Below, piece after piece: positions 1,623 to 38,272 of a stretch of 38,272 bases of DNA. The stretch's first letter is position 1. Each line of letters starts with the position of its first letter. Made by a program: the position numbers and the translations under genes. Below the pieces are notes generated by a model. It did no database searches. It was not told where the DNA came from and worked only from the letters and a program-made list of their open reading frames with translations. Source of the DNA: Thermoplasmatota archaeon (GTDB taxonomy: Archaea; Thermoplasmatota; E2; UBA202; DSCA01); contig JBNGDQ010000001.1 of assembly GCA_049975285.1 (NCBI GenBank), forward strand, positions 1 through 38,272. Direction: 5' to 3'.

Positions 1623-1661
1623 GATTCCACCGGGCGTAGTGAATTGGTAAAACAGATGTGC

Positions 1662-1715
1662 TTTTAAAACATTTGCTCTCGCGCAGGAGCCGCCATACAC
1701 AAAAAGCGTTATATA
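1662..1715. promoter_or_regulatory. Divergent promoter region with two TATA-like boxes (TTTTAAAA 1662-1669 for the minus-strand surface protein; TTATATA 1709-1715 for the plus-strand rSAM gene)
   Basis: A/T-rich octamers sit in an otherwise GC-rich spacer. The 1709-1715 box is about 27 nt upstream of ATG 1739 (leaderless geometry). The 1662-1669 box is about 40-47 nt from ATG 1622, which leaves room for the SD-like motif. Confidence 0.4.
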
Positions 1716-1738
1716 GCCCCCCGGATTTTGCCCACACG

Positions 1739-3058
1739 ATGGATATCCTTCTTATTTATCCTCATCTGGAGCACGGCGTGACCACCCGGGAGGACAGCCA
1801 CACCCCGTTTTCGAAGCTGTTCGGCAATCCCTCCCTGACGCTGCCCCAGATAGCCGCCGTCACACCCGAGAAACACAACGTCCGTATCCTGGATGAAAAC
1901 TTTGAGCCCGTCCGGTACGACGGAGACTGGGACCTCGTCGGCATCAGCTGCCTGACCATGACCGCACCCTACGCCTACCAGATGGCGGACCGATTCCGGC
2001 AGCGGGGCATCCCCGTAGTGCTCGGCGGATACCATCCGACCGCCTGCCCGGAGGAAGCCAGCCAGCACGCGGATGCCATCGTCATCGGCGAGGGCGAGGC
2101 AGGATGGCCGGAACTGCTCCACGACCTCGAAAACAACGGCAAACTCAAACAGTTCTACGGCCGGCAGAGCTGCGTCCAGGCCGAGCAGATTCCAGAGCCC
2201 CGGATGGACCTCGTCCGGTACAAGCCGCTCACCGGCTGCATCCAGACCCAGCGGGGCTGCCCCCACGGCTGCGAGTTCTGCTCCACCTCTGCCTTCCTCG
2301 GACGACAGGTGCGCAGCCGGCCGATACCCGACGTCATCCAGGAGATGAAAAAGATACCCAACAAGCTGATTATCTTCCGGGATGCATCCCTCACCATCAA
2401 GCCCACCTACAGCCGCAAGCTGTTCAACGAGATGATCCAGCAGGACGTCAACAAGAAATGGATCGCCAACGGCAACATCAACCTGCTCAGCCGAGACGAA
2501 GCATTCCTGGAGCTGGCAAAGGAAGCCGGCTGCATCGCCTGGTTCGTCGGCATCGAATCCATCTCCCCTGAAAGCCTCAAGGAGGCCCATAAGACCTCGA
2601 ACACGGCCAGCCAGTACAAGCAGGCCATCAAAACAATCAGGGATCACGGCATGGCGGTCATCGCCGGCATCATCTTCGGGTTCGACCACGACACCCCGGA
2701 CATCTTCGACACCACGCTGGAAAAAATGCTGGAATGGGAGATAGACGTCGGCGAATTCAACATCCTCACCCCCTACCCCGGGACGGCGCTCTTCGACCGG
2801 CTGGACAGTGAAGACCGCATTTTCACCAAGGACTGGTCAAAGTACACGCAGTCCAACGTCGTCTACCAGCCCAAAAATATGACCCCGGAGGAGCTCATGG
2901 AGGGCACCAAACGAGTCATCGACGGCTACTACAACGGGCTGCAGAGCCTGAAGCGCGTCCTGGGCACCCTGAAAATCAGCAAGCTGGCGCCGACCTCGCT
3001 CGTCGTCCCGTCCATCAACTTCGCCATGCGCCGCTACTATTACCGGGAGTTCTTCTGA
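1739..3058 (+). CDS. Cobalamin(B12)-binding-domain radical SAM enzyme (class B rSAM, HpnP/BchE-like architecture), paralog A
   Basis: The ORF-track entry 1658..3058 starts at GTG; the first ATG is at 1739, downstream of a TATA box. The N-terminal Rossmann-like B12 region reads DLVGISCLTMTAPYAYQMADRFRQRGIPVVLGGYHPT...AIVIGEGE. The radical-SAM CxxxCxxC motif is GCPHGCEFC. It aligns along its full length with the CDS at 28156..29547. Confidence 0.85.
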   Translation: MDILLIYPHLEHGVTTREDSHTPFSKLFGNPSLTLPQIAAVTPEKHNVRILDENFEPVRYDGDWDLVGISCLTMTAPYAYQMADRFRQRGIPVVLGGYHPTACPEEASQHADAIVIGEGEAGWPELLHDLENNGKLKQFYGRQSCVQAEQIPEPRMDLVRYKPLTGCIQTQRGCPHGCEFCSTSAFLGRQVRSRPIPDVIQEMKKIPNKLIIFRDASLTIKPTYSRKLFNEMIQQDVNKKWIANGNINLLSRDEAFLELAKEAGCIAWFVGIESISPESLKEAHKTSNTASQYKQAIKTIRDHGMAVIAGIIFGFDHDTPDIFDTTLEKMLEWEIDVGEFNILTPYPGTALFDRLDSEDRIFTKDWSKYTQSNVVYQPKNMTPEELMEGTKRVIDGYYNGLQSLKRVLGTLKISKLAPTSLVVPSINFAMRRYYYREFF

Positions 3059-3693: not shown

Positions 3694-3737
3694 AAAAACA
3701 TAAAAAGAGAAGCGGCATTACCAGCGAAGGTGCTATT

Positions 3738-5054: not shown

Positions 5055-5073
5055 CCGTTTCCCTTTTCCCCGA

Positions 5074-5080
5074 TTTTTTT
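5074..5080 (+). terminator. Oligo-T tract (T7) downstream of the rSAM/TraB-like/GTPase operon
   Basis: TTTTTTT lies 20 nt after the TAA at 5052-5054. Archaeal terminators are typically oligo-T runs. Confidence 0.4.
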
Positions 5081-5110
5081 CTCTCCAGTGTATCTGAGAC
5101 GGGGAAATGG

Positions 5111-5119
5111 TTTTATAGA
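5111..5119 (+). promoter_or_regulatory. TATA-like box (TTTTATAGA) for the secreted protein gene
   Basis: Its centre is about 25 nt upstream of ATG 5140. Confidence 0.4.
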
Positions 5120-5139
5120 ATATTAGTCATATTGCATCC

Positions 5140-18213: not shown

Positions 18214-19890
18214 CTAGAAGTCGTATACCTGCTGGTAGACGGGGTGCTTCACGATCTCATCCTTATGCTCGCGGAACTGTTGGACGCGCTGCTTGGCCTG
18301 CTTGCTGTCCTCCATGAGCTGTTCGGCGCGGTCTCCAGTGGCCTTATGCTTTTCCAGGTAGGCATCACGGTAGATGGAGGGATAGACGTTGTAGGTGCAG
18401 AACGGGATGATGCGGTCTCCAGTGGCGTAGTGGATGCTGCAGCGCTGGACGCGGTTGACGTCGTAGTTGTAGTAGTCCTGGAAGTGCATCATGCCCAGAA
18501 ACAGGAAATTATAATGGAAGGTGCGCAGGCTGTCGTAGCTGCCCTCCCCGAAGATGTTCTCCAGCATGTCCGAGAGCAGCTCGCCGTTCGGCAATTCATC
18601 CTGGATGATATAGTCGGTGAGTTTCTTCGCCAGGGCCTTGTTGATGCCGCGGTAGCGCACCGCATCGCGGATCAGGCTGACGCCGGTGGCGACTTTCTTC
18701 CAGCGGCTCGTCGTCATGTCATTGACGTCCTGGATGAAGCGGTCAACGTCGATGAAATCCGTGATCGGATACAGCTTCATGGCCTCCCGGTCGACGTAGA
18801 CGTAGGTGGCGATACCGCATTTCTCGTTGTTGTAGAAGTGGACGTCATAATGGGCGCGTTTGCCGATAATGTCCGCCAGCGACGACACCGTGGACACGGG
18901 ATACCAGGCCTCCATGCCGAAGCCGAATCGCTGCCTGAGCTGCTCCACGATGTCGCTCTGAACGACGCGGAGTTTCTCCCGGTCACCTTTTTTGATGAAG
19001 CCGACCATGGATATCGGCTGAAAGTTGACGGCCTTGACGCCCTTGTCCATGTTGTGCATGGCAAACCTGACGATGTCCGGTGTTTCCTTGAGATTCAACT
19101 GGCTGACCGTGGGCACCAGCACGGTGCTCTTGATACCTCCGTCGATGTAGGCCTGCAACGCGAACGGCGTCTCATAATGATTCTTGGGGTCACTGGCTGA
19201 ATCCGGGCTGACCCCGTCGAACGAGGTATAGATGGTCTTCAAGCCGGCATCCCGCCATCGCTTCACTCGCTCGACGGCTCTCTCGGGATCCTCATAATAA
19301 TCGATGCCCACCGAGATAGAGTTCGAGTTCAACTGGACATGCGGCGACCCCAGCTCGACGGCTCCAGCGATGATCTCCGCCAGGTCATCCCGCATGGCGG
19401 GCTCCCCACCGGTTATCTGTATCGGGGGCACGTAGCCGTTGAAGCGCTCCGCAGTCTGAATGCCCGCCAGAATCTCATCGATGGATGGCTCATACACGAA
19501 GCCGGCTTTTTCCTCATAAAAGAAGCAGTACCAGCAGCGAAGGTCGCATCTGTTTGTTACCGCAACGTTCAACAATGCCGTGCTGTTCTTGTGCTGGCTA
19601 CAGAGCCCGCAGTTCATCATGTCCTGCGTGTGCTCGATCTCCGTCTGGATGTCTGCTTTCCGGTCCACGGGCGGTGGATACTGTTTGACTTTCTGCCAGT
19701 ACTCCAGGCTGCCGATGCGCTCCCGGGTGCCGTTCTCCTTGAGCAGGTACACCTGCCCGTCTTTTGCTACATAGGCGGCGGGAATCGTGACCGGTATGCC
19801 CCGGGATTCCATTGCCTCCTCGTCGACGCTGCGCGTGGTCTCCAGCACCTCGTATCCCTCCTCCCGGGCAGTTGTTTCAAGGGAACCCAT
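18214..19890 (-). CDS. Large radical SAM protein, COG1964-like; probable tetraether lipid synthase (Tes / GDGT-MAS) homolog
   Basis: The product is 558 aa. The radical-SAM motif is VTNRCDLRCWYCFF, with an extra CGLC pair just upstream. A Cys-bearing C-terminal region reads MMHFQDYYNYDVNRVQRCSIHYATGDRIIPFCTYN. The family resemblance is from memory. The gene is divergent from the GGPP synthase gene. Confidence 0.6.
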   Translation of the reverse strand: MGSLETTAREEGYEVLETTRSVDEEAMESRGIPVTIPAAYVAKDGQVYLLKENGTRERIGSLEYWQKVKQYPPPVDRKADIQTEIEHTQDMMNCGLCSQHKNSTALLNVAVTNRCDLRCWYCFFYEEKAGFVYEPSIDEILAGIQTAERFNGYVPPIQITGGEPAMRDDLAEIIAGAVELGSPHVQLNSNSISVGIDYYEDPERAVERVKRWRDAGLKTIYTSFDGVSPDSASDPKNHYETPFALQAYIDGGIKSTVLVPTVSQLNLKETPDIVRFAMHNMDKGVKAVNFQPISMVGFIKKGDREKLRVVQSDIVEQLRQRFGFGMEAWYPVSTVSSLADIIGKRAHYDVHFYNNEKCGIATYVYVDREAMKLYPITDFIDVDRFIQDVNDMTTSRWKKVATGVSLIRDAVRYRGINKALAKKLTDYIIQDELPNGELLSDMLENIFGEGSYDSLRTFHYNFLFLGMMHFQDYYNYDVNRVQRCSIHYATGDRIIPFCTYNVYPSIYRDAYLEKHKATGDRAEQLMEDSKQAKQRVQQFREHKDEIVKHPVYQQVYDF

Positions 19891-20078: not shown

Positions 20079-21104
20079 ATGCCACGGGCGTTAGGTTCAT
20101 ATATAGGATGTTGTTTAGCCCTAACAATGTCCCTCAGTCACGTGCTTACATTTCAGGAATTCGTCGCCCAGATGCAGGACGAAGTCCGCAACAAGATAGA
20201 CCAGGAGGTGACGGATGAGGATATGCGCTACGCCATCGAGGGCGGCAAACTCCTCCGCCCCGTCATGCTCATTCTTTCCTTCAAGGCATGCTCGAACGGG
20301 CAGCACGACCGTTTGTATCAGAAGGCGCTGGAGAGCGCCGTGGGCATCGAACTGGCGCATTCGGCATCTCTGCTCCATGACGACATTATGGATGATGACG
20401 CCGTGCGGCGGGGGAAATCAGCCCTGCACGTCAAAAAAGGCGTAGGCAATGCTATTCTTACTGGGCATCGGATGATTAGCCAGGCGTTCCGCATCTCCGT
20501 GGACCACGGCCTGCAGAATGCACGTATCTTTCTCGATACCTGGGATGACACCCTGGTGGGGCAGCTGCGCGACATCGACCTCAACGCCCACCTGGAGCAG
20601 ATCTTCGAGGAGGAAAACTCTACTGAGCTGCTGATGCAGGAGTACATCCGGGTCATCGAGATGAAGACCGCGTCATTGTTCGCGACTGCCTGCCGCGCCG
20701 GGGCCATCGAGGCGCAGGCCTCTGACGAGGTTCGCTCAACCATGGCCGAATACGGCCGCAACGTCGGGCTGGCCTACCAGATAGCGGACGACATGGTGGA
20801 CATCGCCCAGGGCAAGATGGAGGAGGGCATCATCATGCCCCTACTGAAGGCCTTCGGGACCGACGTCGACCAGCGGACCATCGAGCTGCTGGAGAAAGGC
20901 AAGCTGTCCATCGAGGAGGAACTCGAAAAGAAGGGCACCAGCCTGGAAGAGGTCTACGAGCAGGGCATCACCCGCTACGTCAAGCGCTCGCAGGACATCG
21001 CTGACTCTCCGGCTATCCCGGATAGTTCCTACAAGGCGCTGCTGCGCGAGGCACCGGTGTACATCACCAACAAAATGACGGAAAAAATCGGCGTCACGGT
21101 ATAA
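20079..21104 (+). CDS. idsA: Polyprenyl diphosphate synthase, most likely geranylgeranyl diphosphate synthase
   Basis: The first aspartate-rich motif is LLHDDIMDDD and the second is QIADDMVD. A trans-prenyltransferase fold is expected. An alternative start at 20127 (MSLSHV...) is possible. Confidence 0.88.
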   Translation: MPRALGSYIGCCLALTMSLSHVLTFQEFVAQMQDEVRNKIDQEVTDEDMRYAIEGGKLLRPVMLILSFKACSNGQHDRLYQKALESAVGIELAHSASLLHDDIMDDDAVRRGKSALHVKKGVGNAILTGHRMISQAFRISVDHGLQNARIFLDTWDDTLVGQLRDIDLNAHLEQIFEEENSTELLMQEYIRVIEMKTASLFATACRAGAIEAQASDEVRSTMAEYGRNVGLAYQIADDMVDIAQGKMEEGIIMPLLKAFGTDVDQRTIELLEKGKLSIEEELEKKGTSLEEVYEQGITRYVKRSQDIADSPAIPDSSYKALLREAPVYITNKMTEKIGVTV

Positions 21105-21785
21105 ATGGCCATCGAGCAGAAAGGGATTACGTCTCCCTTTACCGTCGCCACTTCGATTATCACGGGGGGATTGTTTCCCCTGCTGGGTGCTTTTTTTGCC
21201 TATAGCACCGGGGCTATCCCCACGTTGGAGGACATGGCCTGGCCGGCGCTGGCGTTGACCGTCATCGGCGGCTTTCTGGCACATTACCTCCTGTCGCATA
21301 CCATCCATGACCTGTTCCACTATGAGATAGAGGAGCGGGCCACGTTCAGCCGGCAAACTTTAAAAATCATGCTCATCGTGACGGTCGTCGTCCTGCTCGG
21401 CATCGCCATCTATCTCACCCTGCAGGCCGGCTGGCCCGTGATGGTGTTCGCCGTCATCGGCGCACTCGTTTCCATGTACGCGGAGGGATTGTTCCACAGC
21501 GAAGTCCAGATGGCCATCGGGGCCATGTTCCTGGTCATCGGGTCCTTCTACGTCCAGGTCGGCAGCCGGTATCACGGCCTGGATGCCTTCACCGACATCA
21601 ATGGCATGATTTGGCTGAAGGTCGCGATGCTGTCCCTCTTCGCGTTTTTCTCCCAGTACGGCTGGTTGCTCTTCTACCGGCTGGACGACTACGACTGGAG
21701 TCCCCGGGTCCGCAACCAGAGCATCCTGCTCACCAAGCTCGGGCTCCCCTTCCTCATCCTGGCGCTCGCGCTGCCCGTGACGTAA
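21105..21785 (+). CDS. Polytopic membrane protein (about 7 TM) of unknown function, abutting GGPP synthase
   Basis: Its ATG immediately follows the idsA TAA (TAAATG). Loops carry a His/acidic motif, AHYLLSHTIHDLFHYEIEE, and a second LFHSE motif. No family was recognised. Confidence 0.7.
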   Translation: MAIEQKGITSPFTVATSIITGGLFPLLGAFFAYSTGAIPTLEDMAWPALALTVIGGFLAHYLLSHTIHDLFHYEIEERATFSRQTLKIMLIVTVVVLLGIAIYLTLQAGWPVMVFAVIGALVSMYAEGLFHSEVQMAIGAMFLVIGSFYVQVGSRYHGLDAFTDINGMIWLKVAMLSLFAFFSQYGWLLFYRLDDYDWSPRVRNQSILLTKLGLPFLILALALPVT

Positions 21786-26296: not shown

Positions 26297-26845
26297 CTAT
26301 TCCAGCGAGAACAGGTCCTGCGGCGCTAGCTCATCCAGCTTGTCGGTCGCCCGGATGACACCATCCTCCCGGATGATGAAGCCCTCCTGCTCGTATTCAT
26401 CGAGAATCTGCGTGATAACCGAGGTCTCCCGCATAATCTCGTCCTCCAGCTCCTCGATGTTCACCCGACCCCGCAATCGGAGGCTCACCAGCACAATCAT
26501 CAACACGACCATGACGATATCCTTCGCCAGCACCTTCTCCGCGATATAATCCTCGATGCTCTCCGGCGTATCCGCCATCCGCCAGCCTAACAGGAAGAAG
26601 CCATCCACGACCAAGCGCCCGGCCCACGTGAGCCGGTAGCGTCCCCCCGGCTTCTCAATGAAATGCATCTCCTGTAGCGCCGACAGCGCCCGGTTGAACG
26701 TAGCCGTCGCGATGCCCGTCTCATCCTGGAGCTCCTTCCACCGGAGGCCCTCCTGCTCCCGGAGCACCGTCAGGATAACGATGACGTTTTCGCGCAGCAG
26801 CCGAAAAATCTTGTAGACAACGTCCTGACTCTCAGTATCGTTCAT
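26297..26845 (-). CDS. Winged-helix transcriptional regulator-like protein (HxlR/ArsR-like N-domain), hypothetical
   Basis: The wHTH region is ILTVLREQEGLRWKELQDETGIATATFNRALSALQEMHFIEKPGGRYRLT. A central hydrophobic stretch reads DIVMVVLMIVLVSL. The C-terminus may form a second wHTH-like region. Confidence 0.55.
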   Translation of the reverse strand: MNDTESQDVVYKIFRLLRENVIVILTVLREQEGLRWKELQDETGIATATFNRALSALQEMHFIEKPGGRYRLTWAGRLVVDGFFLLGWRMADTPESIEDYIAEKVLAKDIVMVVLMIVLVSLRLRGRVNIEELEDEIMRETSVITQILDEYEQEGFIIREDGVIRATDKLDELAPQDLFSLE

Positions 26846-26866: not shown

Positions 26867-28039
26867 TTAATAAAGCTTGCCGCTCCCTGATATTGGCGGA
26901 AGATCATCAACGGCTATGCCAGCCGTCCAGGCCACGCCCCGCCGGACGATCCACCAGTTGTAATCCTCCGGCAGCTCCTCCCGACCCGTCCAGCCGAACA
27001 GCCCCAGACCCAGCATGCGGTTCCGCTCCGTGTCCCGCTCGACGAGGCGGCCACCCCGCCAGACGGGATGCTCGGGATGATTACCGAACAAGACGACGCG
27101 TCCCTCCCCATAACGGCAGGAAATGGCTGCGGGCTTCCCGGCGAGATGCGTCTCAATGACCCGGTCATCCATGTCCCACCAGTCAAGTGGCTGCCATGGA
27201 TCGGGACTGTAGCGCCAGGCGTGCAGCATCGTCGATGCGTTGCCGTGCGGACCGGACATGTTTTCATCTGGATACCAGGCCAGCACCGAGACGTCGCCCG
27301 TGGGCAGCAGGGCAGGGCCACCGACCCACCGAATGATGCGACTGTCACCGTCATAACCGGCAAAGATGGGATGACTCCGGTTGACGGGGCACTGCTGGCA
27401 GAGGCCGCTGCCCTCGATGCTGAGGTTGTACCATATGTAGGCTGACTGCCCGATGCGCTCCGGTACACCGGCGAGGGACAGCGCGATGGGGTCGCCGATA
27501 TCCTGGTATGCCTGCACCGACGCGATGCCGAGCGCGGAGGCATTCATGAACCATTCCCATGCAGTCATCGATGTGTGGCCACGCTGCTCTGGCGGTACGA
27601 GGCACTCGGCGGCCATGTTTGCGCCGCCGCAGGCTCCGAAGTAGCCGCCGCCGTTTGCTATGAATTCACGGATGGCCTCCTTCCATGAGGCTCCGACGGC
27701 GTGAGGGCGACGGTATTCTTTGCCGATGCCGGGAATGATGAGGACGTCGAAGCCATCAAGCCCGCCGGCGGTTATCTGCGGGTCGGTGAGCCACGTGACT
27801 TCGAAGCAATAGCTGTTGGTGCCTTCACTCCACGTGTAGCCGTCGAGGAGGGCGTGCATCTCGGGTGGCGAGGTAAACGAGGGAATGAATGAGTCGAGGA
27901 GAGCGACGGTGATGGTCTGCTGCTCTATGGCCGTCGTGTCCGGCGTGGCAGGACGGGCATCATCGTGATGCTCTAGGGCTGATGGAACGACTGGAAGCAG
28001 GAGAAACAGGGCAAAAAAGAGGACAGGCAGCCATTTCAT
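26867..28039 (-). CDS. Secreted protein with class-I glutamine-amidotransferase-like (BPL_N/ThuA-like) domain
   Basis: The preferred start is ATG 28039 (MKWLPVLFFALFLLLPVVPSALE, a signal peptide); the ORF-track extension to 28114 is A/T-rich promoter sequence. The segment FDVLIIPGIG...FIANGGGYFGACGGANMA resembles the GATase1-like nucleophile-elbow region. Confidence 0.55.
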   Translation of the reverse strand: MKWLPVLFFALFLLLPVVPSALEHHDDARPATPDTTAIEQQTITVALLDSFIPSFTSPPEMHALLDGYTWSEGTNSYCFEVTWLTDPQITAGGLDGFDVLIIPGIGKEYRRPHAVGASWKEAIREFIANGGGYFGACGGANMAAECLVPPEQRGHTSMTAWEWFMNASALGIASVQAYQDIGDPIALSLAGVPERIGQSAYIWYNLSIEGSGLCQQCPVNRSHPIFAGYDGDSRIIRWVGGPALLPTGDVSVLAWYPDENMSGPHGNASTMLHAWRYSPDPWQPLDWWDMDDRVIETHLAGKPAAISCRYGEGRVVLFGNHPEHPVWRGGRLVERDTERNRMLGLGLFGWTGREELPEDYNWWIVRRGVAWTAGIAVDDLPPISGSGKLY

Positions 28040-28155
28040 GGATGTAATATCTTCTATTCTAATATATAATTTTAGAAAAGTTTTAAAATAAACATTCATT
28101 ATTATAGCGTTCAAAATATGAGCGTCAAAAATGTGGATGTTGCCGGGAGGATAGC

Positions 28156-29547
28156 ATGAACATCCTGCTCACCATGCCGTCTCCACAGCGCTACCAAGAC
28201 TGGTACGACCGACTCCTCGAACGCATATGTATACTCTGGCCGCCCCTCACGCTCAGACAGCTCGAAGCCATAACCCCGGACAAACACACGGTTGACGTCG
28301 TTCACAGCCATGAAAAAATAAAAGAAAATGAGGAATACGACGTCGTCGGCATAAGCTTCTTTACCGCCACCGCCCCACAGGCATATGCCCTGGCTGACAC
28401 GTACAGAGAAAAAGGAAGCATCGTCATACTCGGGGGCTACCATGCATCCGCACTGCCCAGCGAAGCAAAACAGCACAGCGATGCCGTCGTCATTGGAGAA
28501 GCCGAACATCTCTGGCCCCGGGTTCTGCATGACATCGAACACGACACGCTCCAGCCCTTCTATCACATGCGACGCCCTACACCGCCACGTGCCATCCCCG
28601 GAGCCACACAGACCAGCATCCCGGGAATGATCAAAATCGGCGGGGCCGAAGCCACCCGGGGATGTCCCTACGGCTGCGAGTTCTGCGCCCTCTCCCACAG
28701 CCCGTTCGGACAGTGCTACCGGAAAAAACCAGTCGAGCAGGTCATCGCAGAGATAACATCCATCCCACACAGATACTTCGTCTTCTACGACGGTTCGCTC
28801 ACCGTGGACCCGACCTACACGAAGGCCCTGTTCCGCCGGCTCCGCGACCTCAACAAAAAATTTGCCGCCTTCGGCCATGCCAGCATGGTCGACGACGAAG
28901 AGCTGCTCCGGCTGGCCCGGGATGCGGGATGCATCGCCTGGGACATCGGCTTCGAATCCATCTACCAGCATACCATCGACCGGCTCAATAAGCGCTCCAA
29001 TGTGGTACAGAGATATGCCGACGTGGTGGAAAAACTCCATGACTATGGCATGAACGTGATAGGGTCGTTTGCCTTCGGCTTCGACGAGCACACCCCGGGC
29101 GTCTTCGACAAAACACTGGAGGCTGTCCACCAGTGGGACATCGACTCCCTGGGCATCACGATTCTCACGCCGCTGCCGGGAACCCGGCTCTACGACCGGT
29201 TGCAAAAAGAAAACCGGATACTGACCAGAGACTGGTCGAAATATGACCTCTACCACGTCGTATTCCAGCCGAAACACATGTCCCCCCGGGAACTCTACGA
29301 CGGAGTGTCCAACTTCGTCAAAGCATTTTACGCACCGGACAACCTCCTGCAGCGCATGATGAGAAATATAGCCCATACGGGCCTCCTCTCCTCGCTGGGC
29401 ATCAACTACCACCTCATCAGCTCCCGGGTCATCTACAAATCAGCCTTCGGACAGCGCTACATCCACAACCATCACCATCAACAATATCCAATATCGTCAC
29501 CAGCAACATCTCTAAAGAGCAGTGCCAGCCCAGCCAGGCAAAAATAG
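28156..29547 (+). CDS. Cobalamin(B12)-binding-domain radical SAM enzyme (class B rSAM), paralog B
   Basis: GGGAGG (28145-28150) precedes the ATG. The B12-domain region reads DVVGISFFTATAPQAYALADTYREKGSIVILGGYHAS...AVVIGEAE. The rSAM motif is GCPYGCEFC. Blocks shared with paralog A are AGCIAW, FGFD..TP, ILTP.PGT, DWSKY and QPK.M.P.EL. Confidence 0.88.
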   Translation: MNILLTMPSPQRYQDWYDRLLERICILWPPLTLRQLEAITPDKHTVDVVHSHEKIKENEEYDVVGISFFTATAPQAYALADTYREKGSIVILGGYHASALPSEAKQHSDAVVIGEAEHLWPRVLHDIEHDTLQPFYHMRRPTPPRAIPGATQTSIPGMIKIGGAEATRGCPYGCEFCALSHSPFGQCYRKKPVEQVIAEITSIPHRYFVFYDGSLTVDPTYTKALFRRLRDLNKKFAAFGHASMVDDEELLRLARDAGCIAWDIGFESIYQHTIDRLNKRSNVVQRYADVVEKLHDYGMNVIGSFAFGFDEHTPGVFDKTLEAVHQWDIDSLGITILTPLPGTRLYDRLQKENRILTRDWSKYDLYHVVFQPKHMSPRELYDGVSNFVKAFYAPDNLLQRMMRNIAHTGLLSSLGINYHLISSRVIYKSAFGQRYIHNHHHQQYPISSPATSLKSSASPARQK

Positions 29548-29585
29548 CAATTATTAAAAGTTTGCAAGGCATATATGCATGTTTC

Positions 29586-30653
29586 ATGGACGTGGTCATC
29601 GTTGGTGCCGGACCCGCCGGCCTCATCACTGGTCTTCAGCTTCTGGAGCGAGGGGAATCACCCGTCATCTGCGAAAAACAGCCCGGGATAGTGACCACGG
29701 TCTGCGCTGAGGCCTGTGACAGCAACTCGCTGAAACAGCTCCCGTTTGACTCTACCCCCTACATCGCCCATGAAGTCGAAGGCGCCTACGCTGTCTTCCC
29801 CGGCGACAGCCACTTCGAGATCCCCAAACCAGGAGTCGTCCTCGACCGGCAGCGGTGGCTGCAGGGCCTCGCTACAGCTTTCGAGCAGCGAGGCGGCGTC
29901 CTCCGCACCGGGACCACTGTGACCTCGACCACCGACAGCGGCGTCATGCTGCAGGATGGAGAACACCTGCAGGCAGACATCGTCGTGGGGGCCGACGGAC
30001 CCTACTCGCGTCTCAGAAAACAGATGGAGATCCCCCAAGAGCTCATATGTGGCGTCCAGTACCGCGTGGCCTGCGACACCAGTGACATGGACCACCTTCG
30101 CTTCTATTTCGACAAGCGCTTCAGCGAGCATTATGGCTGGCTGTTCCCCCGGGGTGAGGTAGTCAACGTGGGCCTCTCCGGTAAATGCAGGCAGCTCGAC
30201 CGGCTCCTGGCTCATCTCGGCTTCGATGCCGCGGCAGTAACGGAGAAGATGGCCGGCGCTATCCCGGTCGGCGGGGTACCGAAACGACTCGTGGATGGCA
30301 ATCGAGTGCTCATCGGGGATGCTGCCTCCATGACGAATCCGCTCTCCGGCGGTGGACTGACACCCATCGCGCATGCATCGGCGCTGCTCGCCCGGTACAT
30401 CGATGACCTTAAGCGATATGAGCAGGCAGTCCATGCGCATCCAATGGCGGACAAGAGCATCGTGCGGGCAAAGAACGTATTGCTCCGCCTGAGTGTCGAG
30501 GACCTGCGGAAGATGGGAGACCTGGTCGACGGGAAAACCATGTACGAGCTGGGGCACCGTGACCGGATTGCAGCCTTGCGGTATCCCCTGCTGGCTCCCT
30601 CCTTCAAAGCGATGGCGAAGGGGGTAGCGCTCTCCCTTGAATGGGGATGGTAG
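29586..30653 (+). CDS. Geranylgeranyl reductase family flavoprotein (digeranylgeranylglycerophospholipid reductase-like)
   Basis: The ORF-track start at 29562 is TTG. ATG 29586 gives MDVVIVGAGPAGL, which contains the FAD GxGxxG motif. LIGDAASMTNPLSGGGL is the conserved GGR motif. A TATA-like TTATTAAAA lies at 29551-29559. Confidence 0.85.
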   Translation: MDVVIVGAGPAGLITGLQLLERGESPVICEKQPGIVTTVCAEACDSNSLKQLPFDSTPYIAHEVEGAYAVFPGDSHFEIPKPGVVLDRQRWLQGLATAFEQRGGVLRTGTTVTSTTDSGVMLQDGEHLQADIVVGADGPYSRLRKQMEIPQELICGVQYRVACDTSDMDHLRFYFDKRFSEHYGWLFPRGEVVNVGLSGKCRQLDRLLAHLGFDAAAVTEKMAGAIPVGGVPKRLVDGNRVLIGDAASMTNPLSGGGLTPIAHASALLARYIDDLKRYEQAVHAHPMADKSIVRAKNVLLRLSVEDLRKMGDLVDGKTMYELGHRDRIAALRYPLLAPSFKAMAKGVALSLEWGW

Positions 30654-32465
30654 CTAGCCCTGCCATTCCTGGAAGCAGATGATGAAGGTGGAGCCTTCGC
30701 CCGGCTGGCTGTCCACGTGAATGGTGCCCCCCTGGTTTTCGATGATGGTTTTGACCAGGTGGAGACCGAGGCCGCTGCCGCTGCTGTCATCGCCCTTTAC
30801 CTTGCGAGAAAAAATATCCTTCCGGATGGCATCCGGGATGCCCCGGCCGTCATCCGCGATGGAGACCGTCACGTGACCGTCTGCTCTCTCGCCGGTGATG
30901 ATGACCCGGTCGGCCCGGGAATGCGCCACGGCGTTGCCGATGATGTTGACGAAGGCCTCCCGGGTGAGCTCGTTGCCCTGGACCACGGCCTGGATGGGCT
31001 CATACTGCACCTGGATCTCCTGCCGGGATAGCTCGCTGGAGAACTCGGCGAGCACCTCGCGTATCAACGGGTCCAGGTCTACCGGCTGGAGTTCCTGTTC
31101 CTCCGTCGCGCGCTGTATCTCCCGAACCTTCTGGATGAGGCGGTTGCTGGACTCCAGTGAACGAAAGGCCATCTCCGCCAGGTCCCGCTGCTCCCCGGAG
31201 AGATCCATGCCCAGGAGCAGCTCGAGGTATCCCATGATGACCTGGTTCTTGTTGCGGACGTCATGCCGGAGCAATGAATGATAAAACGCGGCTTGTTCCT
31301 CCGCCTGCTTCATCCGGGTGATGTCGGTTACGATGGCAAACGTGCCCCCGAACGAGCCATCCGGGTTCCGATAGGGCGCCGCGGACACGATGCCGTTCAA
31401 CAACTGTCCATTCCGATGGCGGAACACTGCCTCGTAGGCGTCCCGCATACCATCCTTGCGCTGCTCCGTCTTGGCCTGGAATACCTGGTATTGCTCCTCA
31501 GTCGTGATGTCCCGCAGGTTTTTACCCGTGAGCTCGTCTACGGGATACCCGATGAAATCCGACATTGTCTGATTGACGAATAATATAGTCTCATCTGGGT
31601 CAAGCTTGATGATGCCCTCCTTCGCCGTCTCCACCAGGATGCGGTACTGGTTCTCCGACGCCCGGAGTTCATCCAGCGTCTGCAGGCTCTTCAACACCGT
31701 CGCCATCTCCGATGCCAGCGTGCTCAGCAGCGTCCGGTCCTCCAGCGTGATAGCGTCAACGGCGTCATTCTGCACGTCGAAGACACCGAACTTTTCCTCC
31801 TTGAACGTAATCGGGATGGCATATTCACAGCGGGCACCCGGCACCCCCTCGATGTAGCGGTCATCCTCCCGAACGTCGGGTACATACAGGGCGTCATCCG
31901 TCAGAAACGCAGCCACCGTGATACCGTCACCGGCCAGCGGCAGCTGCAACGCTTTCTCTGCTGCTGTATACCCGCGCTGCCGGGCAATACGAAGCGCATC
32001 GCCGTCCCGCTCCAGGATAGCGCAGTTGCGGTACCCGAGCAGATCCTTCGCGAAATCCATGACCAGCTCATAGACGCGCTCTTTATCCGGAGCTACCTTC
32101 ATCTCCCGGGAGGCTGCCTCCACCAGCCGCATTTTTTGCTCGAAGCGCATGTGACTGGTGACCTCCATCAGGCAGCCGGAGAGCATATCTTCTCCCTGCA
32201 GCTGGACGGCAGCCCTGCGAAACTCGACCCATCGTTCCACGTCGCCAGCCATTATTTTAAAGCGGACCGGGGTGCCCTGGAGCAACTGTTCCCGGACTTC
32301 GCCGGCGTCCGGGATGAGCGACCAGAACTGGTCCACGGGTACGGCATCCTGCGAAAAGCCAGTCAGGGTTCGCATATGCCGGTTGAGCATCAACAGCCGG
32401 TCATCCCGGATGGCGAAAAAACCCACCGGTACGGCATCCATCAATGTCTCAGCCCGCGATGGCAT
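30654..32465 (-). CDS. Cytoplasmic sensor histidine kinase (PAS-GAF-PAS-HisKA-HATPase_c)
   Basis: The H-box is LLRHDVRNKNQVIMGYLELL, the N-box is VNIIGNAVAHS, and the G-boxes are IADDGRGI and GSGLGLHLVKTII. No TM segment is present. A TATA-like box (minus-strand TTATATAT, 32486-32493) lies about 25 nt upstream of the ATG. Confidence 0.9.
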   Translation of the reverse strand: MPSRAETLMDAVPVGFFAIRDDRLLMLNRHMRTLTGFSQDAVPVDQFWSLIPDAGEVREQLLQGTPVRFKIMAGDVERWVEFRRAAVQLQGEDMLSGCLMEVTSHMRFEQKMRLVEAASREMKVAPDKERVYELVMDFAKDLLGYRNCAILERDGDALRIARQRGYTAAEKALQLPLAGDGITVAAFLTDDALYVPDVREDDRYIEGVPGARCEYAIPITFKEEKFGVFDVQNDAVDAITLEDRTLLSTLASEMATVLKSLQTLDELRASENQYRILVETAKEGIIKLDPDETILFVNQTMSDFIGYPVDELTGKNLRDITTEEQYQVFQAKTEQRKDGMRDAYEAVFRHRNGQLLNGIVSAAPYRNPDGSFGGTFAIVTDITRMKQAEEQAAFYHSLLRHDVRNKNQVIMGYLELLLGMDLSGEQRDLAEMAFRSLESSNRLIQKVREIQRATEEQELQPVDLDPLIREVLAEFSSELSRQEIQVQYEPIQAVVQGNELTREAFVNIIGNAVAHSRADRVIITGERADGHVTVSIADDGRGIPDAIRKDIFSRKVKGDDSSGSGLGLHLVKTIIENQGGTIHVDSQPGEGSTFIICFQEWQG

Positions 32466-32498: not shown

Positions 32499-33002
32499 TT
32501 ATTTTTCTTCGTCGACCCGCTGTATGTTCATGCCCTTGTACTCGAGCCGGGCGGATCGCTTGACGATGGATTTCATCTGGATGGAACTGAAATCGAATTT
32601 ACGCTCTGCTTCACGGCCGAGCTCGCCGTCGCCGACGAAGTCGTAGATCTGCTGCTCGATGTCATGGAACGTCTCCTCGTCCATCAGGGCAATGGAGAAC
32701 ACGTCCTGGAGCATGTCAACCGACGATATGACCTTTATATGGAAGGATGAATAAAAAGCATGATATTGTTTCTTCGCGGTGCCGCCGTCCATCTCCCAGC
32801 GGGTCTCCACGAGCTTGACTTTTTCAAAAAACGTGAGGGCCTCCTTTCCCGCCTGGCCGTATTCCTCCTCGACTTCTTCCATGATGGTCCATTCCTCGCA
32901 GACCTTCTCAAACACATGCCGCTTGACGTCGGAGTCAAAGGCTCGCATCAGCCACACCAGATCCGTAATATCGTTGATCAGCTTCGCCTGGCTCATAGAC
33001 AT
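32499..33002 (-). CDS. Hypothetical acidic cytoplasmic protein (167 aa), possibly wHTH-like
   Basis: The ORF is clean with ATG starts (MSMSQ...). It lies immediately upstream of the kinase on the same strand. No confident family was recognised. Confidence 0.5.
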   Translation of the reverse strand: MSMSQAKLINDITDLVWLMRAFDSDVKRHVFEKVCEEWTIMEEVEEEYGQAGKEALTFFEKVKLVETRWEMDGGTAKKQYHAFYSSFHIKVISSVDMLQDVFSIALMDEETFHDIEQQIYDFVGDGELGREAERKFDFSSIQMKSIVKRSARLEYKGMNIQRVDEEK

Positions 33003-33068
33003 TTATGGCACATCCGTTTAAATTTCTATGGGTCAAAAATCATTAATAGCAGGAACAAATACGGGTGT

Positions 33069-33977
33069 ATGGGAGAAGGCTACGGCTACGGCAAAGTCAT
33101 TTTATTCAATGAACACTTCGTCGTCTACGACGTCCCGGCTATCGCGTCAGCCATCGACAAGACAACCACGGCACGCGTCCGGCCCAGTCCATCCGGGCTG
33201 GTGCTCCACGACGACCGCATGGCCACCCCGCGATACAAGGAAAACAAGAAAGACCAGCAGCAGGACTCACTCCGCTACATCTTCCAGGCCATGGACGTCG
33301 ACCCCAACCTGGAGATATGGCTCCAGGGCGACCTCAAGGCAGCCAGCGGCATCGGAGCCAGCGCGGCCAGCTGCGCCGCGATAGCGAGAGCCATCAACGA
33401 TGAATACGACATGGGCCTCAGCATGGAGGACATCAATCGCGTTGCCTATGAGGGAGAACGCGGCTACCATGGCACCCCGTCGGGCCTCGACAACACCGTC
33501 GCCACGTTCGGCGGCCTGGTCTGGTTCCAGTCCGGCGACATGGAACGGCTCACCATCGATGAACCCGTCGACATCGTGATGGGCAACACGGGCATCGTCG
33601 CGGATACCAAGCAGGCCGTGGCCGGCGTCCGCAAACGCAGAGAACAGCAGCCCGATAAATATGAAAAGGTTTTCAAGCAGGCAGAGGAACTGGTACATGA
33701 GGCGCGCGAGGCACTGCTCGCCAGCGACTGGCCAAAAGTCGGCCGGTATATGAACCAAAACCATGAGCTGCTCCAGCAGATCGAGGTGTCATCGCCGGAG
33801 CTGAACGAGCTCGTCGACCTGGCCCGGGAGCAGGGCGCCCTCGGCGCCAAGATGACCGGCGGAGGCCTCGGCGGGTTCATGGTGGCATTGACGCCCGGCG
33901 GGGAGCTACAGGAAACCGTCGCAGCGGCGATAGAAGACGCGGGTTACGAGGCACTCCGCACCCGGGTGGGCATCTAA
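33069..33977 (+). CDS. mvk: Mevalonate kinase
   Basis: The true start is ATG 33069 (MGEGYGYGKVILFNEHFVVYDVPAIA); the ORF-track start at 32760 overlaps the opposite-strand gene. The GHMP motif is KAASGIGASAASCAA and the C-terminal motif is GAKMTGGGLGGF. Confidence 0.92.
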   Translation: MGEGYGYGKVILFNEHFVVYDVPAIASAIDKTTTARVRPSPSGLVLHDDRMATPRYKENKKDQQQDSLRYIFQAMDVDPNLEIWLQGDLKAASGIGASAASCAAIARAINDEYDMGLSMEDINRVAYEGERGYHGTPSGLDNTVATFGGLVWFQSGDMERLTIDEPVDIVMGNTGIVADTKQAVAGVRKRREQQPDKYEKVFKQAEELVHEAREALLASDWPKVGRYMNQNHELLQQIEVSSPELNELVDLAREQGALGAKMTGGGLGGFMVALTPGGELQETVAAAIEDAGYEALRTRVGI

Positions 33978-34010: not shown

Positions 34011-34020
34011 CATCCCGTCT

Positions 34021-34105
34021 GCGAGGGTAGCCAAGCCAGGCCAACGGCGACAGACTCAAGATCTGTTCCAGCAGTGGTTCGTCGGTTCGAATCCGGCCCC
34101 TCGCA
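34021..34105 (+). tRNA. tRNA-Leu (anticodon CAA)
   Basis: Hand-folded structure. Acceptor stem GCGAGGG/CCCTCGC, and anticodon stem ACAGA/TCTGT with loop CT-CAA-GA. A long variable arm (TCCAGCAGTGGTTC) is typical of tRNA-Leu. The T arm is GTCGG-TTCGAAT-CCGGC and the discriminator is A. No CCA is encoded, and a T7 run follows. Confidence 0.9.
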
Positions 34106-34112
34106 TTTTTTT
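34106..34112 (+). terminator. Oligo-T (T7) immediately after tRNA-Leu
   Basis: TTTTTTT directly follows the discriminator base. Confidence 0.5.
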
Positions 34113-34154
34113 AATATTAAACATTTATATACTACTTCGATGTTATAAGGGGTA

Positions 34155-34688
34155 ATGACTTACGAGAAAAAACCTCGGATTACCAAGCGGACTATTCCGG
34201 TGTATCTCCCGACCATTGAAATGAAAGAGCGGTGGAAAACCAAAGCGGAAGAAGTCGGGTTGTCGGCATCAAAGTTTGTTATCGAATACGTTGAAAACTC
34301 ACTGATGCAGGAAGAGAATAAGGATATATATAGCTCGCGCGCCGAACTAATGGAACAAATAAAAGACCTGAAAGATGAAAATACGGAGTTACGGAAGCGT
34401 AACAAAATGCTTGATACTCTGATTGGTAGAATGGACGAAGATATGAAACGATACCGTACTAAACCATTCATGCAAGATGAGTTTTATGGCATCAGGGAAT
34501 ATGAGGAGCAGCTCATAAATATATTCAAGGAACGGGGGAAGGTTAGAAAGGAAGAAATATATGAGCTGCTAGATATCGACCCCATGAAAAACAGTGACAT
34601 CGTGAAGGGCATAAACCGACAGTTAGAGATGCTGGAACGGTATGGCATGATAGAGGACAAGGGAAAGGTGTGGGTATGGAACGGCTAA
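34155..34688 (+). CDS. Ribbon-helix-helix (CopG/Arc-like) + coiled-coil + C-terminal winged-helix protein; candidate element regulator or excision factor
   Basis: AAGGGG precedes ATG 34155. The N-terminal RHH pattern is KRTIPVYLPTIEMKERWKTKAEEVGLSASKFVIEYVENSL. A heptad-rich middle region reads ELMEQIKDLKDENTELRKRNKMLDTL. The C-terminus is EEIYELLDIDPMKNSDIVKGINRQLEMLERYGMIEDKGKVWVW. Its 3' end overlaps the integrase start. Confidence 0.7.
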   Translation: MTYEKKPRITKRTIPVYLPTIEMKERWKTKAEEVGLSASKFVIEYVENSLMQEENKDIYSSRAELMEQIKDLKDENTELRKRNKMLDTLIGRMDEDMKRYRTKPFMQDEFYGIREYEEQLINIFKERGKVRKEEIYELLDIDPMKNSDIVKGINRQLEMLERYGMIEDKGKVWVWNG

Positions 34689-35617
34689 CCGATACTGAAC
34701 TACTGAGAGAGTTTGTAGATGATTGCAAGGTTAGGGGCCTGACCCATCATACCATCCGATGCTACCGAGGTCAAATACGGATATTTCGGGATTTTTTGAA
34801 TGAGCATAACCGGCATTTCTACGACGTTGACAAGAATATTTTGAAAGAGTTCATCCGATATCTCCGTAACCAGCGTAAGGTCAGCCAGAAGCGTATAGAA
34901 AATTATTTTTCCAGTTTGTCGAGCTTCTATGACTTCCTAACCTACGAAGACATCGTGGATAAAAATATAGTGTTGCAGGTTAGAAAACGGTATCTGCGTC
35001 GCTACAAAAAAGATAACAATGGTGGTAGCAGTCGAAAGCTGATAAGCATCGATGAAATGGCGAACTTCATAAACATGATATCTGATACTAGGGACAAAGC
35101 TGTTGCATTGCTTCTGGCAAAAACGGGCATCAGGAGAGGGGAGCTCATAAGCATAGATGTCGATGATATTGACTGGCAGGACATGAGCATCCGGCTGAAA
35201 CCTAAGGCAAAACGGTCAAACCTAACAGTGTTTTTCGACGACGAAACCACCGCTATCCTATGGCGGTGGGTATCCAAACGTGAAACCGTAGCAAACGAGG
35301 ACTGCCGTGCATTGTTTGTATCATATCAGTATGGCAAGCGGCTGAAACGAAGCGGCGTATATCATCCCTTTATATCTTGGGCTGAAAGGGCGGGACTCCA
35401 TAATTCCGAATCAGCCAGACTAGAGGACCACTTTACCCCCCATTGTTGCCGTCATTGGTTTACCACACATCTACGGCGGGCGGGGATGCCCAGGGAATAC
35501 ATCAAGGAACTACGCGGAGATGCCAGGACCGAAGCAATGGATATCTACCATCACATCGACCGTGAAGAACTGAAAAAATCCTATTTGGTACATATTCCAC
35601 AGTTGGGGGTTGAATAA
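34676..35617 (+). CDS. Tyrosine recombinase / phage-type integrase (XerC/D-like)
   Basis: The N-terminal SAM-like core-binding domain includes GLTHHTIRCYRGQIRIFRDFL. Catalytic signatures are AKTGIRRGEL (Arg), HCCRHWFTTHL (HxxR) and MDIYHH (Tyr). The ORF-track start at 34670 is GTG; the ATG is at 34676. Confidence 0.92.
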   Translation: MERLTDTELLREFVDDCKVRGLTHHTIRCYRGQIRIFRDFLNEHNRHFYDVDKNILKEFIRYLRNQRKVSQKRIENYFSSLSSFYDFLTYEDIVDKNIVLQVRKRYLRRYKKDNNGGSSRKLISIDEMANFINMISDTRDKAVALLLAKTGIRRGELISIDVDDIDWQDMSIRLKPKAKRSNLTVFFDDETTAILWRWVSKRETVANEDCRALFVSYQYGKRLKRSGVYHPFISWAERAGLHNSESARLEDHFTPHCCRHWFTTHLRRAGMPREYIKELRGDARTEAMDIYHHIDREELKKSYLVHIPQLGVE

Positions 35618-35862
35618 TGAATCAATATAGAGGTTTAAAAAGATGAGTGATTCAAGTAGTATAGATGCCAATATGATGTAAAGCGGAAAAAAGATATGAA
35701 CAGCCGAAAAAAAATGCGAAGAGGCAATCCTGCAGCAAACCTTGAGAAGTTATAGAACTGCTGACAGGCGCTTAGAACTCTGTGTAAAGGGACAGAATGA
35801 ACGCTTGGACTATCTTGCCTGAATGGCAATACTATGGCATAATACAATATCGAAAGGATTAG

Positions 35863-35967
35863 GAAAAACAAGAGGGCATCGACATCTATCATCACATTGG
35901 TCACGAAAAACTCAGTAACAAATACGTGGCCTGCATACCCCGCTTGGGCTCGAATAACATACGCTGA
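35863..35967 (+). pseudogene. Relic of the 3' end of a second, diverged tyrosine-integrase gene
   Basis: The frame opens after TAG 35860-35862 and reads EKQEGIDIYHHIGHEKLSNKYVACIPRLGSNNIR*. This aligns with the C-terminus of the intact integrase (EAMDIYHHIDREELKKSYLVHIPQLGVE*), including the catalytic Tyr context. No upstream integrase sequence remains. Confidence 0.65.
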
Positions 35968-36130
35968 TATATCTCTGCTGACACCAATGTTGGCAACCAG
36001 TCAGTGCAAAGAAGAAGGGAACACAATGTGGAGAACCAGGGGGGGGGGTAAATCCTTAATATTGGATCGCATTATAGAGCCATAGGAGCGGATACATGAT
36101 TTTGATGGGATATCGGAACCGGAGGACATC

Positions 36131-36346
36131 ATGCACTCTATACATCTACCCATCTGGCATGAAGCCGTTGGCCACTTGGTGGAGGTCTCCCTGCAACACG
36201 GATACATCCATGCGACGCTCGCCAAAGTTGGCACCATCATTATGCCCTTCAACGAGGACCATTATCAGCGACTCCAGACGTTGACAGGGAAACGGATCGC
36301 TATCCTACGAATAGATACCGGCTATGTAGTAGCAGAAGCAGTCTGA
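36131..36346 (+). CDS. Hypothetical small protein (71 aa) on the island
   Basis: GGAGG (36121-36125) lies 5 nt upstream of ATG 36131. No family was recognised. Confidence 0.35.
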   Translation: MHSIHLPIWHEAVGHLVEVSLQHGYIHATLAKVGTIIMPFNEDHYQRLQTLTGKRIAILRIDTGYVVAEAV

Positions 36347-36738
36347 CACCCCCTAAGGGTCACAAAACCTCGCCCGAAACACCACGACGGGGGCAGCACT
36401 ACGATAGAGCAAGGATGGCTGCATATTGATTTAGACGTAAGACTATCACGGGGTGGAGAGGGGGCATGTGGAGGAAAACTCCAATAACTCCTGCCTATAG
36501 ATGGCAGAAGCACCAACATTTCTGCCCCCCTGACCAATTATAATATTGCAAAGGATATTTAATATTTTTTTTATCAGTGATGTATTTTTGTATGCTGTAT
36601 TTGGTAATCCTGTAAAAAGCCCTTGAAACCAACTACGAATTGTGTTTGATAGCATTTTTAGATATAATGGTTTTAAATGGGTATAACATTGATATAATGC
36701 TGGTGGAGAGCTACCCCAAAAATAAATGGAGAGATAAA

Positions 36739-38262: not shown

Positions 38263-38272
38263 GACCTGAAAA

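Follow-up and report, generated by a model that had tools for sequence, protein, structure and literature searches.

The window analysed here is a 38-kb contig (38,272 nucleotides) from the metagenome-assembled genome (MAG) of an uncultured 'Thermoplasmatota archaeon'. It carries two co-oriented genes, both annotated NCBI proteins (MGC9307167.1 and MGC9307168.1), separated by 38 nt: a class-B (cobalamin-domain) radical S-adenosylmethionine (SAM) enzyme, hereafter rSAM, and 3' of it a flavoenzyme of the geranylgeranyl reductase (GGR) family. The initial annotation had recognized both genes and their spacing, and Pfam profiles, motifs, fold and coordinates agreed with it. It had also proposed that the adjacency implies a shared lipid-tailoring step, and this proposal failed the synteny comparison: only three loci of very close relatives keep the pair, and 79 further genome loci lack it. 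We lean, if not strongly, towards reading the pair as a lineage-specific junction of two independently conserved gene blocks that are probably transcribed separately.

The two adjacent genes

The rSAM protein matches the Pfam profiles Radical_SAM (65.7 bits), B12-binding PF02310 (46.1 bits, cut-off 32.1) and DUF4070 (35 bits). Its CxxxCxxC motif reads CPYGCEFC, and the three cysteines (C170, C174 and C177) are unchanged across 26 homologues. In an AlphaFold2 model with a mean pLDDT of 86.6 and a generic class-B fold, strands and helices alternate over residues 2–128, as in a Rossmann-type B12-binding domain. The structures closest to the model are AprD4, MgmA, TsrM, CysS, OxsB and TokK (TM-score 0.59–0.68, 14–19% identity). 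Among solved structures, AprD4 (6FD2) and MgmA (9CCB) come nearest, sharing the class-B fold (TM-score 0.59–0.68) and giving profile matches of 60–65 bits, but they are only 17–19% identical to rSAM, and their substrates, an aminoglycoside and a glutamine of methyl-coenzyme M reductase, respectively, find no support for rSAM. By motif and N-terminal domain the protein is a class-B radical SAM enzyme, for which cobalamin use is predicted. To our knowledge, AprD4 has a B12-like N-terminal domain yet no bound cobalamin, so the fold alone cannot settle whether rSAM binds or uses the cofactor.

None of the NCBIfam equivalogs was matched by rSAM above its curated cut-off: BchE scored 103 bits (cut-off 481), HpnJ 84 (578), HpnR 58 (650), MgmA 56 (360) and TIGR04072 54 (360). 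The bacterial class-B enzymes BchE, HpnJ and HpnR/HpnP rank with the best partial profile matches and have the DUF4070 region in common with rSAM, but the BchE, HpnJ and HpnR matches cover the core domain only and lie far below their cut-offs. A hydrophobic-moment scan of the C-terminal helices gave no clear membrane-binding amphipathic helix and was uninformative. Fold and motifs suggest a reaction in which a [4Fe-4S] cluster on C170, C174 and C177 would cleave SAM reductively and the 5'-deoxyadenosyl radical would take a hydrogen from an unactivated carbon. Cobalamin held by the Rossmann domain would then deliver a methyl group or, less likely, stabilize the radical for rearrangement or desaturation.

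The GGR protein scores 150.9 bits on the superfamily model TIGR02032, just under its cut-off of 158.8, with the match covering positions 1–294 of the 297 in the profile. It falls below the cut-offs of the archaeal DGGGPL-reductase equivalogs NF041080 (56.5 bits against 580) and NF041160 (48.4 against 780). All its motifs align with the Thermoplasma GGR (Ta0516, 3OZ2): the cysteine in VCAEA, YGWLFPRGE..NVG and LIGDAA..NPLSGGG. The seven top Foldseek matches of its model (pLDDT 92.6) are all GGR structures, at TM-scores of 0.78–0.84 (0.84 to 3OZ2, 0.79–0.82 to the Sulfolobus GGR). With 3OZ2 and the Sulfolobus structure 3ATQ it shares the FAD Rossmann fold, the catalytic cysteine and the YxWxFP..G and GDAA motifs, but it is 40–100 residues shorter and 22% identical, and its subfamily also occurs in Chloroflexota. 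This subfamily is narrow, with about 60 clusters at 39% identity or more, drawn from Thermoplasmatota and Chloroflexota, and the next relatives below 37%. A metagenome scan with the GGR alignment, which used generic patterns, returned only GGRs of at most 30% identity. With FAD and the conserved cysteine, the enzyme most likely saturates double bonds in the isoprenoid chains of the organism's lipids.

Conservation of the pair and of its spacer

A homologue search with rSAM returned more than 3,000 relatives: a single cluster at 97% identity and another at 76%, a few at 58–66%, and then a broad plateau at 41–56% made up of MAGs of Thermoplasmata, Thermococci and Promethearchaeota, with proteins typically of 430–440 aa. 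A genome survey with one genome per species confirmed 579 relatives, of which the best 80 were inspected; these came from uncultured MAGs throughout, nearly all labelled Thermoplasmatota, at no more than 56% identity. Gene order was compared in 79 genome loci of rSAM relatives, with flanks of up to 6 kb on either side, and in contigs L080–L092 (L-numbers are labels of the relatives' loci and contigs).

The adjacency of rSAM and GGR was kept only in L082 (rSAM 97% identical), L080 (77%) and L083, where the flanking genes are 72–98% identical. L080 and L083, and in part L082, share the order of the window: FTHFS, FchA, FtcD, an HVO_A0261-type double winged-helix (HTH) regulator and an amidotransferase-like gene on the minus strand, followed by rSAM and GGR on the plus strand, a histidine kinase and an ArsR-type regulator on the minus strand, and mevalonate kinase. 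GGR is absent beside the positional orthologues of rSAM in L091, L092, L081, L010, L003, L005, L006 and L032 (about 50–66% identity). A tblastn search with GGR against the 79 genome loci gave no match at E ≤ 1e-5, and a more sensitive blastp search added a single distant gene of GGR type, 26% identical and about 5 kb from rSAM, in L027. The surroundings of the intermediate relatives vary. An amidohydrolase gene and ThiI lie around rSAM in L091 (66%). L092 (62%) has genes for a PaaK-like enzyme and a methyltransferase upstream and a second B12 rSAM downstream, L081 (58%) has a twitch/SPASM rSAM, and L010 (52%) has KptA and GTP cyclohydrolase genes. Six loci of the clade at about 50% identity have a co-oriented DUF362-ferredoxin gene 1–30 nt downstream. 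These intermediate relatives retain the upstream HTH gene, and most retain the amidotransferase-like gene, but GGR is missing, which marks the adjacency as a derived feature of one genus-level lineage.

Nor do the two genes co-vary. In L083, FTHFS, FtcD, HTH, ArsR and mevalonate kinase are 91, 92, 90, 91 and 89% identical to their counterparts in the window and GGR is 80% identical (flanks 72–92%), yet the rSAM at 4647–5966 is only 51% identical to that of the window and groups with the L003/L010 type. This suggests that a paralog replaced the gene in its slot or that the gene diverged very fast.

GGR in turn is found elsewhere without a B12 rSAM. The order GGR, ArsR, mevalonate kinase, UbiD occurs in L088 and L089, with the ArsR–kinase block as in the window. 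L087 has a Tes-like gene, whose product is 67% identical to that of the window, followed by an Fe-repressor, GGR and PaaK; L085 and L090 have Fe-repressor, GGR and PaaK. In L084, whose genome carries methyl-coenzyme M reductase genes, a SPASM rSAM precedes GGR, and in L086, a Dehalococcoidales MAG, GGR stands between a GyrI-like gene and an ABC transporter. Across these contexts (L084–L090) GGR repeatedly accompanies mevalonate and tetraether genes. It is best read as a compact prenyl reductase of these lineages, and the gene in the window probably encodes a compact lipid reductase, perhaps the main one of its own lineage.

Two possible links between the genes were considered and set aside. 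One joined B12 rSAM, SPASM rSAM and GGR through L081 and L084, where the two SPASM proteins proved 25% identical and of different families. The other ran through PaaK in L085, L087 and L090, where the proteins are true phenylacetate-CoA ligases, 23% identical to the adenylating enzyme found near the rSAM family. Separately, the GGR frame in L080 (6661–7733) is broken near residues 103–121 at a CAAAAACGCGGGG stretch, giving a shortened product on two contigs; this could be a pseudogene in decay or an assembly error.

The spacer between the genes bears on their transcription. It contains a TATA-like box, ATTATTAAAAG, at about −38 to −28 from the ATG of GGR, and the block after it is unchanged in L080 and L083, whereas the 3' end of rSAM diverges there. 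In L080 a 1-nt indel excludes an in-frame TTG at 29562 as the GGR start. A similar box lies 22–38 nt 5' of the ATG in most first genes of transcription units in the window; rSAM instead has a Shine–Dalgarno-like GGGAGG at −12 to −7. GGR homologues in unrelated contexts are preceded by similar ATTAAA boxes. Judged from these elements, GGR probably has its own promoter in the spacer, and rSAM and GGR are probably transcribed separately.

The two blocks that would meet at this junction are FTHFS, FchA, FtcD, HTH, amidotransferase-like gene and rSAM on one side, and GGR, in some cases the histidine kinase, ArsR and mevalonate kinase on the other. Since only very close relatives share the pairing, which looks like a block junction, it is weak evidence for a new lipid-modifying step. 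The occurrence of the GGR subfamily without a B12 rSAM and the apparent promoter of GGR further undercut the proposed shared step. Gene adjacency at this locus is thus no evidence for a shared pathway.

The rSAM family and its candidate functions

The rSAM belongs to a large, paralog-rich and uncharacterised family from uncultured Thermoplasmatota, with three copies in CP070798 and two each in CP070712 and CP070724. The window itself encodes a second copy (Table 1), which fell into a separate clade from the first in a neighbour-joining tree of 114 members. Extra tandem copies were present in 28 of the 79 loci. A PaaK/F390-synthetase-like adenylating enzyme was found near rSAM in 29 loci, a class-I methyltransferase in 14, secreted Big_7 and NosD proteins in 13 and 11, and DUF362 in nine. 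Prenyl-type neighbours were a UbiA prenyltransferase (five of 79), GGPP synthase (one) and mevalonate kinase (one). The usual neighbours are thus further copies, PaaK-like enzymes, methyltransferases and secreted proteins, and not lipid genes. Judged by its companions, rSAM is no likelier to act on lipids than on a small molecule or a surface glycan.

Co-oriented strings of a PaaK/F390-synthetase-like gene, a B12 rSAM, a CntL/nicotianamine-synthase-like methyltransferase and a second PaaK-like gene occur in L029 (4632–9254), L030, L067 and L092, with an HVO_A0261-type regulator nearby in all four; they are apparently a biosynthetic cassette of uncultured Thermoplasmatota that has yet to be described. 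A DUF362/4Fe-4S ferredoxin fusion, co-oriented 1–30 nt 3' of rSAM in L001, L002, L006, L007, L009 and L032, may be a redox partner of rSAM in the nearest genome clade. Near-identical rSAM–UbiA pairs in L019 (QNBN01000119.1), L023 (JAGGZO010000042.1) and L065 are filed as Spirochaetes, Aenigmatarchaeota and Nanoarchaeia MAGs; these odd labels are probably binning errors and not the true hosts. L027 was rejected as an rSAM–GGPP synthase cluster, because a pyruvate:ferredoxin oxidoreductase operon sits between the two genes.

The initial annotation had noted that the GrsA/GrsB ring synthases share the class-B architecture, and the literature agrees: GrsA and GrsB (Saci_1585, Saci_0240; TK0167) are B12-type radical SAM enzymes that form the rings of glycerol dialkyl glycerol tetraethers. 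Like rSAM they combine a B12-type Rossmann domain, a partial TIM barrel with CxxxCxxC and C-terminal helices, and they are archaeal and come from a genome with a tetraether synthase (here the Tes-like gene); the likeness described here is one of architecture. Unlike them, the rSAM family is multi-copy, with variable, non-lipid neighbours. Gmm, Cgm (Saci_1785), Pgm and Ted (DRO69_02625) are likewise archaeal class-B radical SAM enzymes and act on inert isoprenoid carbons. Ted conceptually reverses the GGR reaction, which makes a neighbouring GGR suggestive. The reported partner of Ted, however, is an AttH-like hydratase (Hgs), and the genes of both Ted and Gmm have a ring synthase gene nearby (that of Gmm also gms) and not a GGR. 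Homologues of Cgm and Ted were defined by their authors as longer than 495 or at least 500 aa with BLASTP E ≤ 1e-99 or 1e-100 to Saci_1785 or Ted. At 463 aa (family typically 430–440), rSAM is shorter than this length criterion for Cgm, Pgm, Gmm and Ted homologues. A candidate ladderane cluster of B12 rSAM, phytoene-dehydrogenase-like flavoenzyme and AMP-ligase resembles the locus in that a B12 rSAM adjoins a flavin-dependent double-bond enzyme. Its family TIGR04072 aligns nearly full length with both copies in the window (54 bits for the first and 90 for the second, cut-off 360), but that system is bacterial and fatty-acid based, and its ladderane function is unproven.

Among the alternatives, the one closest to the original proposal is that rSAM modifies isoprenoid chains, by methylation, ring formation, cross-linking or Ted-like desaturation, with GGR as a two-gene unit. 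The domain architecture is that of Grs, Gmm, Cgm, Pgm and Ted, and in the model the C-terminal helices of rSAM (residues 377–430) are similar to the C-terminal helix reported for models of Grs. The 38-nt co-oriented spacing is retained in L082, L080 and L083, the Tes-like, GGPP synthase and mevalonate kinase genes lie within 10 kb, and members of the rSAM family occasionally have prenyl-gene neighbours. We nevertheless consider such a unit unlikely, though well worth keeping in view: synteny is gone at 66% identity and below, each gene keeps other conserved partners, a promoter-like element stands between them, rSAM has been replaced or has diverged in L083, where GGR is still 80% identical, the GGR frame is broken in L080, and the protein is short for a Cgm or Ted homologue. 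Proximity would, moreover, equally implicate the folate genes FTHFS, FchA and FtcD of the rSAM block. Less probable again is that rSAM, like many of its paralogs, works in a pathway for a small molecule or surface glycan, together with PaaK/F390-synthetase-like adenylating enzymes and SAM methyltransferases. For this speak the frequency of both gene types around the family (29 and 14 of 79 loci), sometimes in co-oriented strings; the order PaaK-like, rSAM, methyltransferase, PaaK-like and then the same HTH type in L029; the order PaaK-like, HTH, methyltransferase, rSAM, B12 rSAM in L092, whose rSAM is 62% identical; the secreted Big_7, NosD, PKD and amidotransferase-like neighbours; and the nearest solved fold, that of the aminoglycoside enzyme AprD4. 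That structural match is generic, however, paralogs may differ in substrate, and the rSAM copy in the window has no adjoining PaaK-like or methyltransferase gene.

Two narrower ideas fare worse. The gene 3' of rSAM might encode a redox partner that feeds electrons to the iron–sulfur cluster or the cobalamin, since a DUF362/4Fe-4S gene takes this place in six loci of the closest clade and the same slot here holds a GGR-like flavoprotein. Yet GGR retains every catalytic and substrate motif of prenyl reductases, occurs in many genomes without an adjacent rSAM and seems to have its own promoter, and we know of no GGR-family enzyme that acts as a reductase for a radical SAM enzyme; we regard a redox role as very unlikely. 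Still harder to credit is the suggestion of the initial annotation, made for the case of a Methanomassiliicoccales-like organism, that rSAM could be the missing methylase for butanetriol or pentanetriol tetraether backbones. The surveyed literature names no enzyme for this step, class-B radical SAM enzymes methylate unactivated carbons, and the organism probably makes tetraethers because a Tes-like gene is present. On the other side, the window holds no methanogenesis gene, and the best 80 of the 579 relatives are all from uncultured Thermoplasmatota MAGs, with no Methanomassiliicoccus or Bathyarchaeia among the matches listed. Several copies per genome in variable contexts are also ill-suited to one dedicated backbone methylase.

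The junction of two independent blocks remains our preferred reading, and a number of observations weigh against it. Of the characterised archaeal class-B radical SAM enzymes surveyed, Grs, Gmm, Cgm, Pgm and Ted act on lipids, and the sole exceptions are the two methylases of methyl-coenzyme M reductase, so the prior for a lipid substrate is not small. A UbiA prenyltransferase adjoins rSAM family members in L018, L019 and L023, and a family member lies near GGPP synthase in L027. In every inspected contig of the close clade a family rSAM adjoins GGR, even after the change of subtype in L083. The promoter between the genes is deduced from sequence, and read-through transcription from rSAM into GGR is possible. 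The Tes-like, GGPP synthase and mevalonate kinase genes all lie within the window. The membrane protein encoded next to GGPP synthase there also follows GGPP synthase in L027 (4719–5393) and adjoins family rSAMs in L052 (6512–7150) and L061 (3813–4478), a soft hint at isoprenoids. Taking these together, we think a lipid substrate for rSAM doubtful but far from negligible. More specifically, rSAM might have been recruited beside GGR to act on tetraether or diether isoprenoid chains, as a Ted-like anaerobic desaturase or a chain methylase, with GGR re-saturating or finishing the products; we rate this as improbable.

If rSAM does modify archaeal lipids, it would be one more enzyme behind the tetraether biomarkers of palaeoclimate work, and uncultured sedimentary Thermoplasmatota would be a source of modified tetraethers. 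Recruitment beside GGR would also add one clade to the radical SAM enzymes that modify lipids, and the two genes would form a regulated saturation/desaturation pair. The large multi-copy B12 radical SAM family of uncultured Thermoplasmatota merits a direct test.

Other features of the window

Table 1 Features of the window discussed in the text, in order of position.
Feature	Coordinates	Strand	Basis
Second copy (paralog) of the same B12 radical SAM family	1658..3058	+	Pfam; 42% identity, 334 bits to first copy
Tes-like tetraether synthase radical SAM	18214..19890	-	NF045702, 424.4 bits (cut-off 450)
Polyprenyl (GGPP-type) synthase	20079..21104	+	PF00348, 164 bits
Multi-pass membrane protein	21105..21785	+	Translation; abuts GGPP synthase gene
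HVO_A0261-type double winged-helix (HTH) regulator	26297..26845	-	Pfam
Secreted or membrane-anchored class-I amidotransferase-like protein; probable start M26 at 28039	26867..28114	-	Weak BPL_N and GATase_3 matches
rSAM, class-B (cobalamin-domain) radical SAM protein, 463 aa, ATG start	28156..29547	+	Pfam domains, invariant cysteines, fold
Intergenic spacer with TATA-like box, then conserved block to GGR ATG	29548..29585	+	
GGR, compact geranylgeranyl-reductase-family flavoenzyme, 355 aa, ATG start	29586..30653	+	TIGR02032, motifs, fold
GAF-PAS histidine kinase, convergent with GGR	30654..32465	-	Pfam and NCBIfam; conserved in L080, L083
ArsR-type regulator, part of the GGR/ArsR/mevalonate kinase block	32499..33002	-	PF09824 on homologues in L080, L083, L088
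Mevalonate kinase	33066..33977	+	TIGR00549, 240.9 bits (cut-off 163)

The Tes-like, GGPP synthase and mevalonate kinase genes had been named in the initial annotation, and the profile scores in Table 1 uphold these assignments. In L087, the gene for the homologue of the Tes-like protein is two genes away from a GGR-like gene. The membrane protein encoded 3' of GGPP synthase had no Pfam match. The mechanically called open reading frame (ORF) of mevalonate kinase, 32760–33977, is about 100 codons too long: homologues have 302–305 aa and align from residue 103–112, and the extra 5' part overlaps the ArsR gene on the opposite strand. The ArsR regulator is 91% identical in both L080 and L083.

The amidotransferase-like gene, divergent from rSAM, is its most conserved neighbour (L080, L082, L083, L091, L003, L005, L006, L010 and L032). 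The HTH regulator also recurs with rSAM, in L080, L082, L083, L091, L092, L001, L003, L010, L029, L030, L032 and L067.

The relatives nearest to the second rSAM copy in the neighbour-joining tree are L074 and L062 (65% identical). It is followed on its 3' side by two ORFs without a family assignment (3058–3693 and 3690–5054) and a CobW/HypB-like GTPase-domain protein (5140–6696). Beyond these, the best named non-self relatives of the phosphoenolpyruvate synthase at 6717–9101 are bacterial (Desulfobacterota, cyanobacteria and anammox bacteria; 65–67% identity), which suggests a bacterial-type gene.

Rfam and tRNA scans of the window found two tRNAs only, neither of them in the rSAM–GGR region. 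No att repeat was found inside the window for a putative integrated element at its end, where, past tRNA-Leu(CAA), the GC content falls from about 0.58–0.60 to 0.44–0.46 and a tyrosine integrase is encoded at 34670–35617. This stretch (34020–38272) is probably an integrated element truncated by the contig end.

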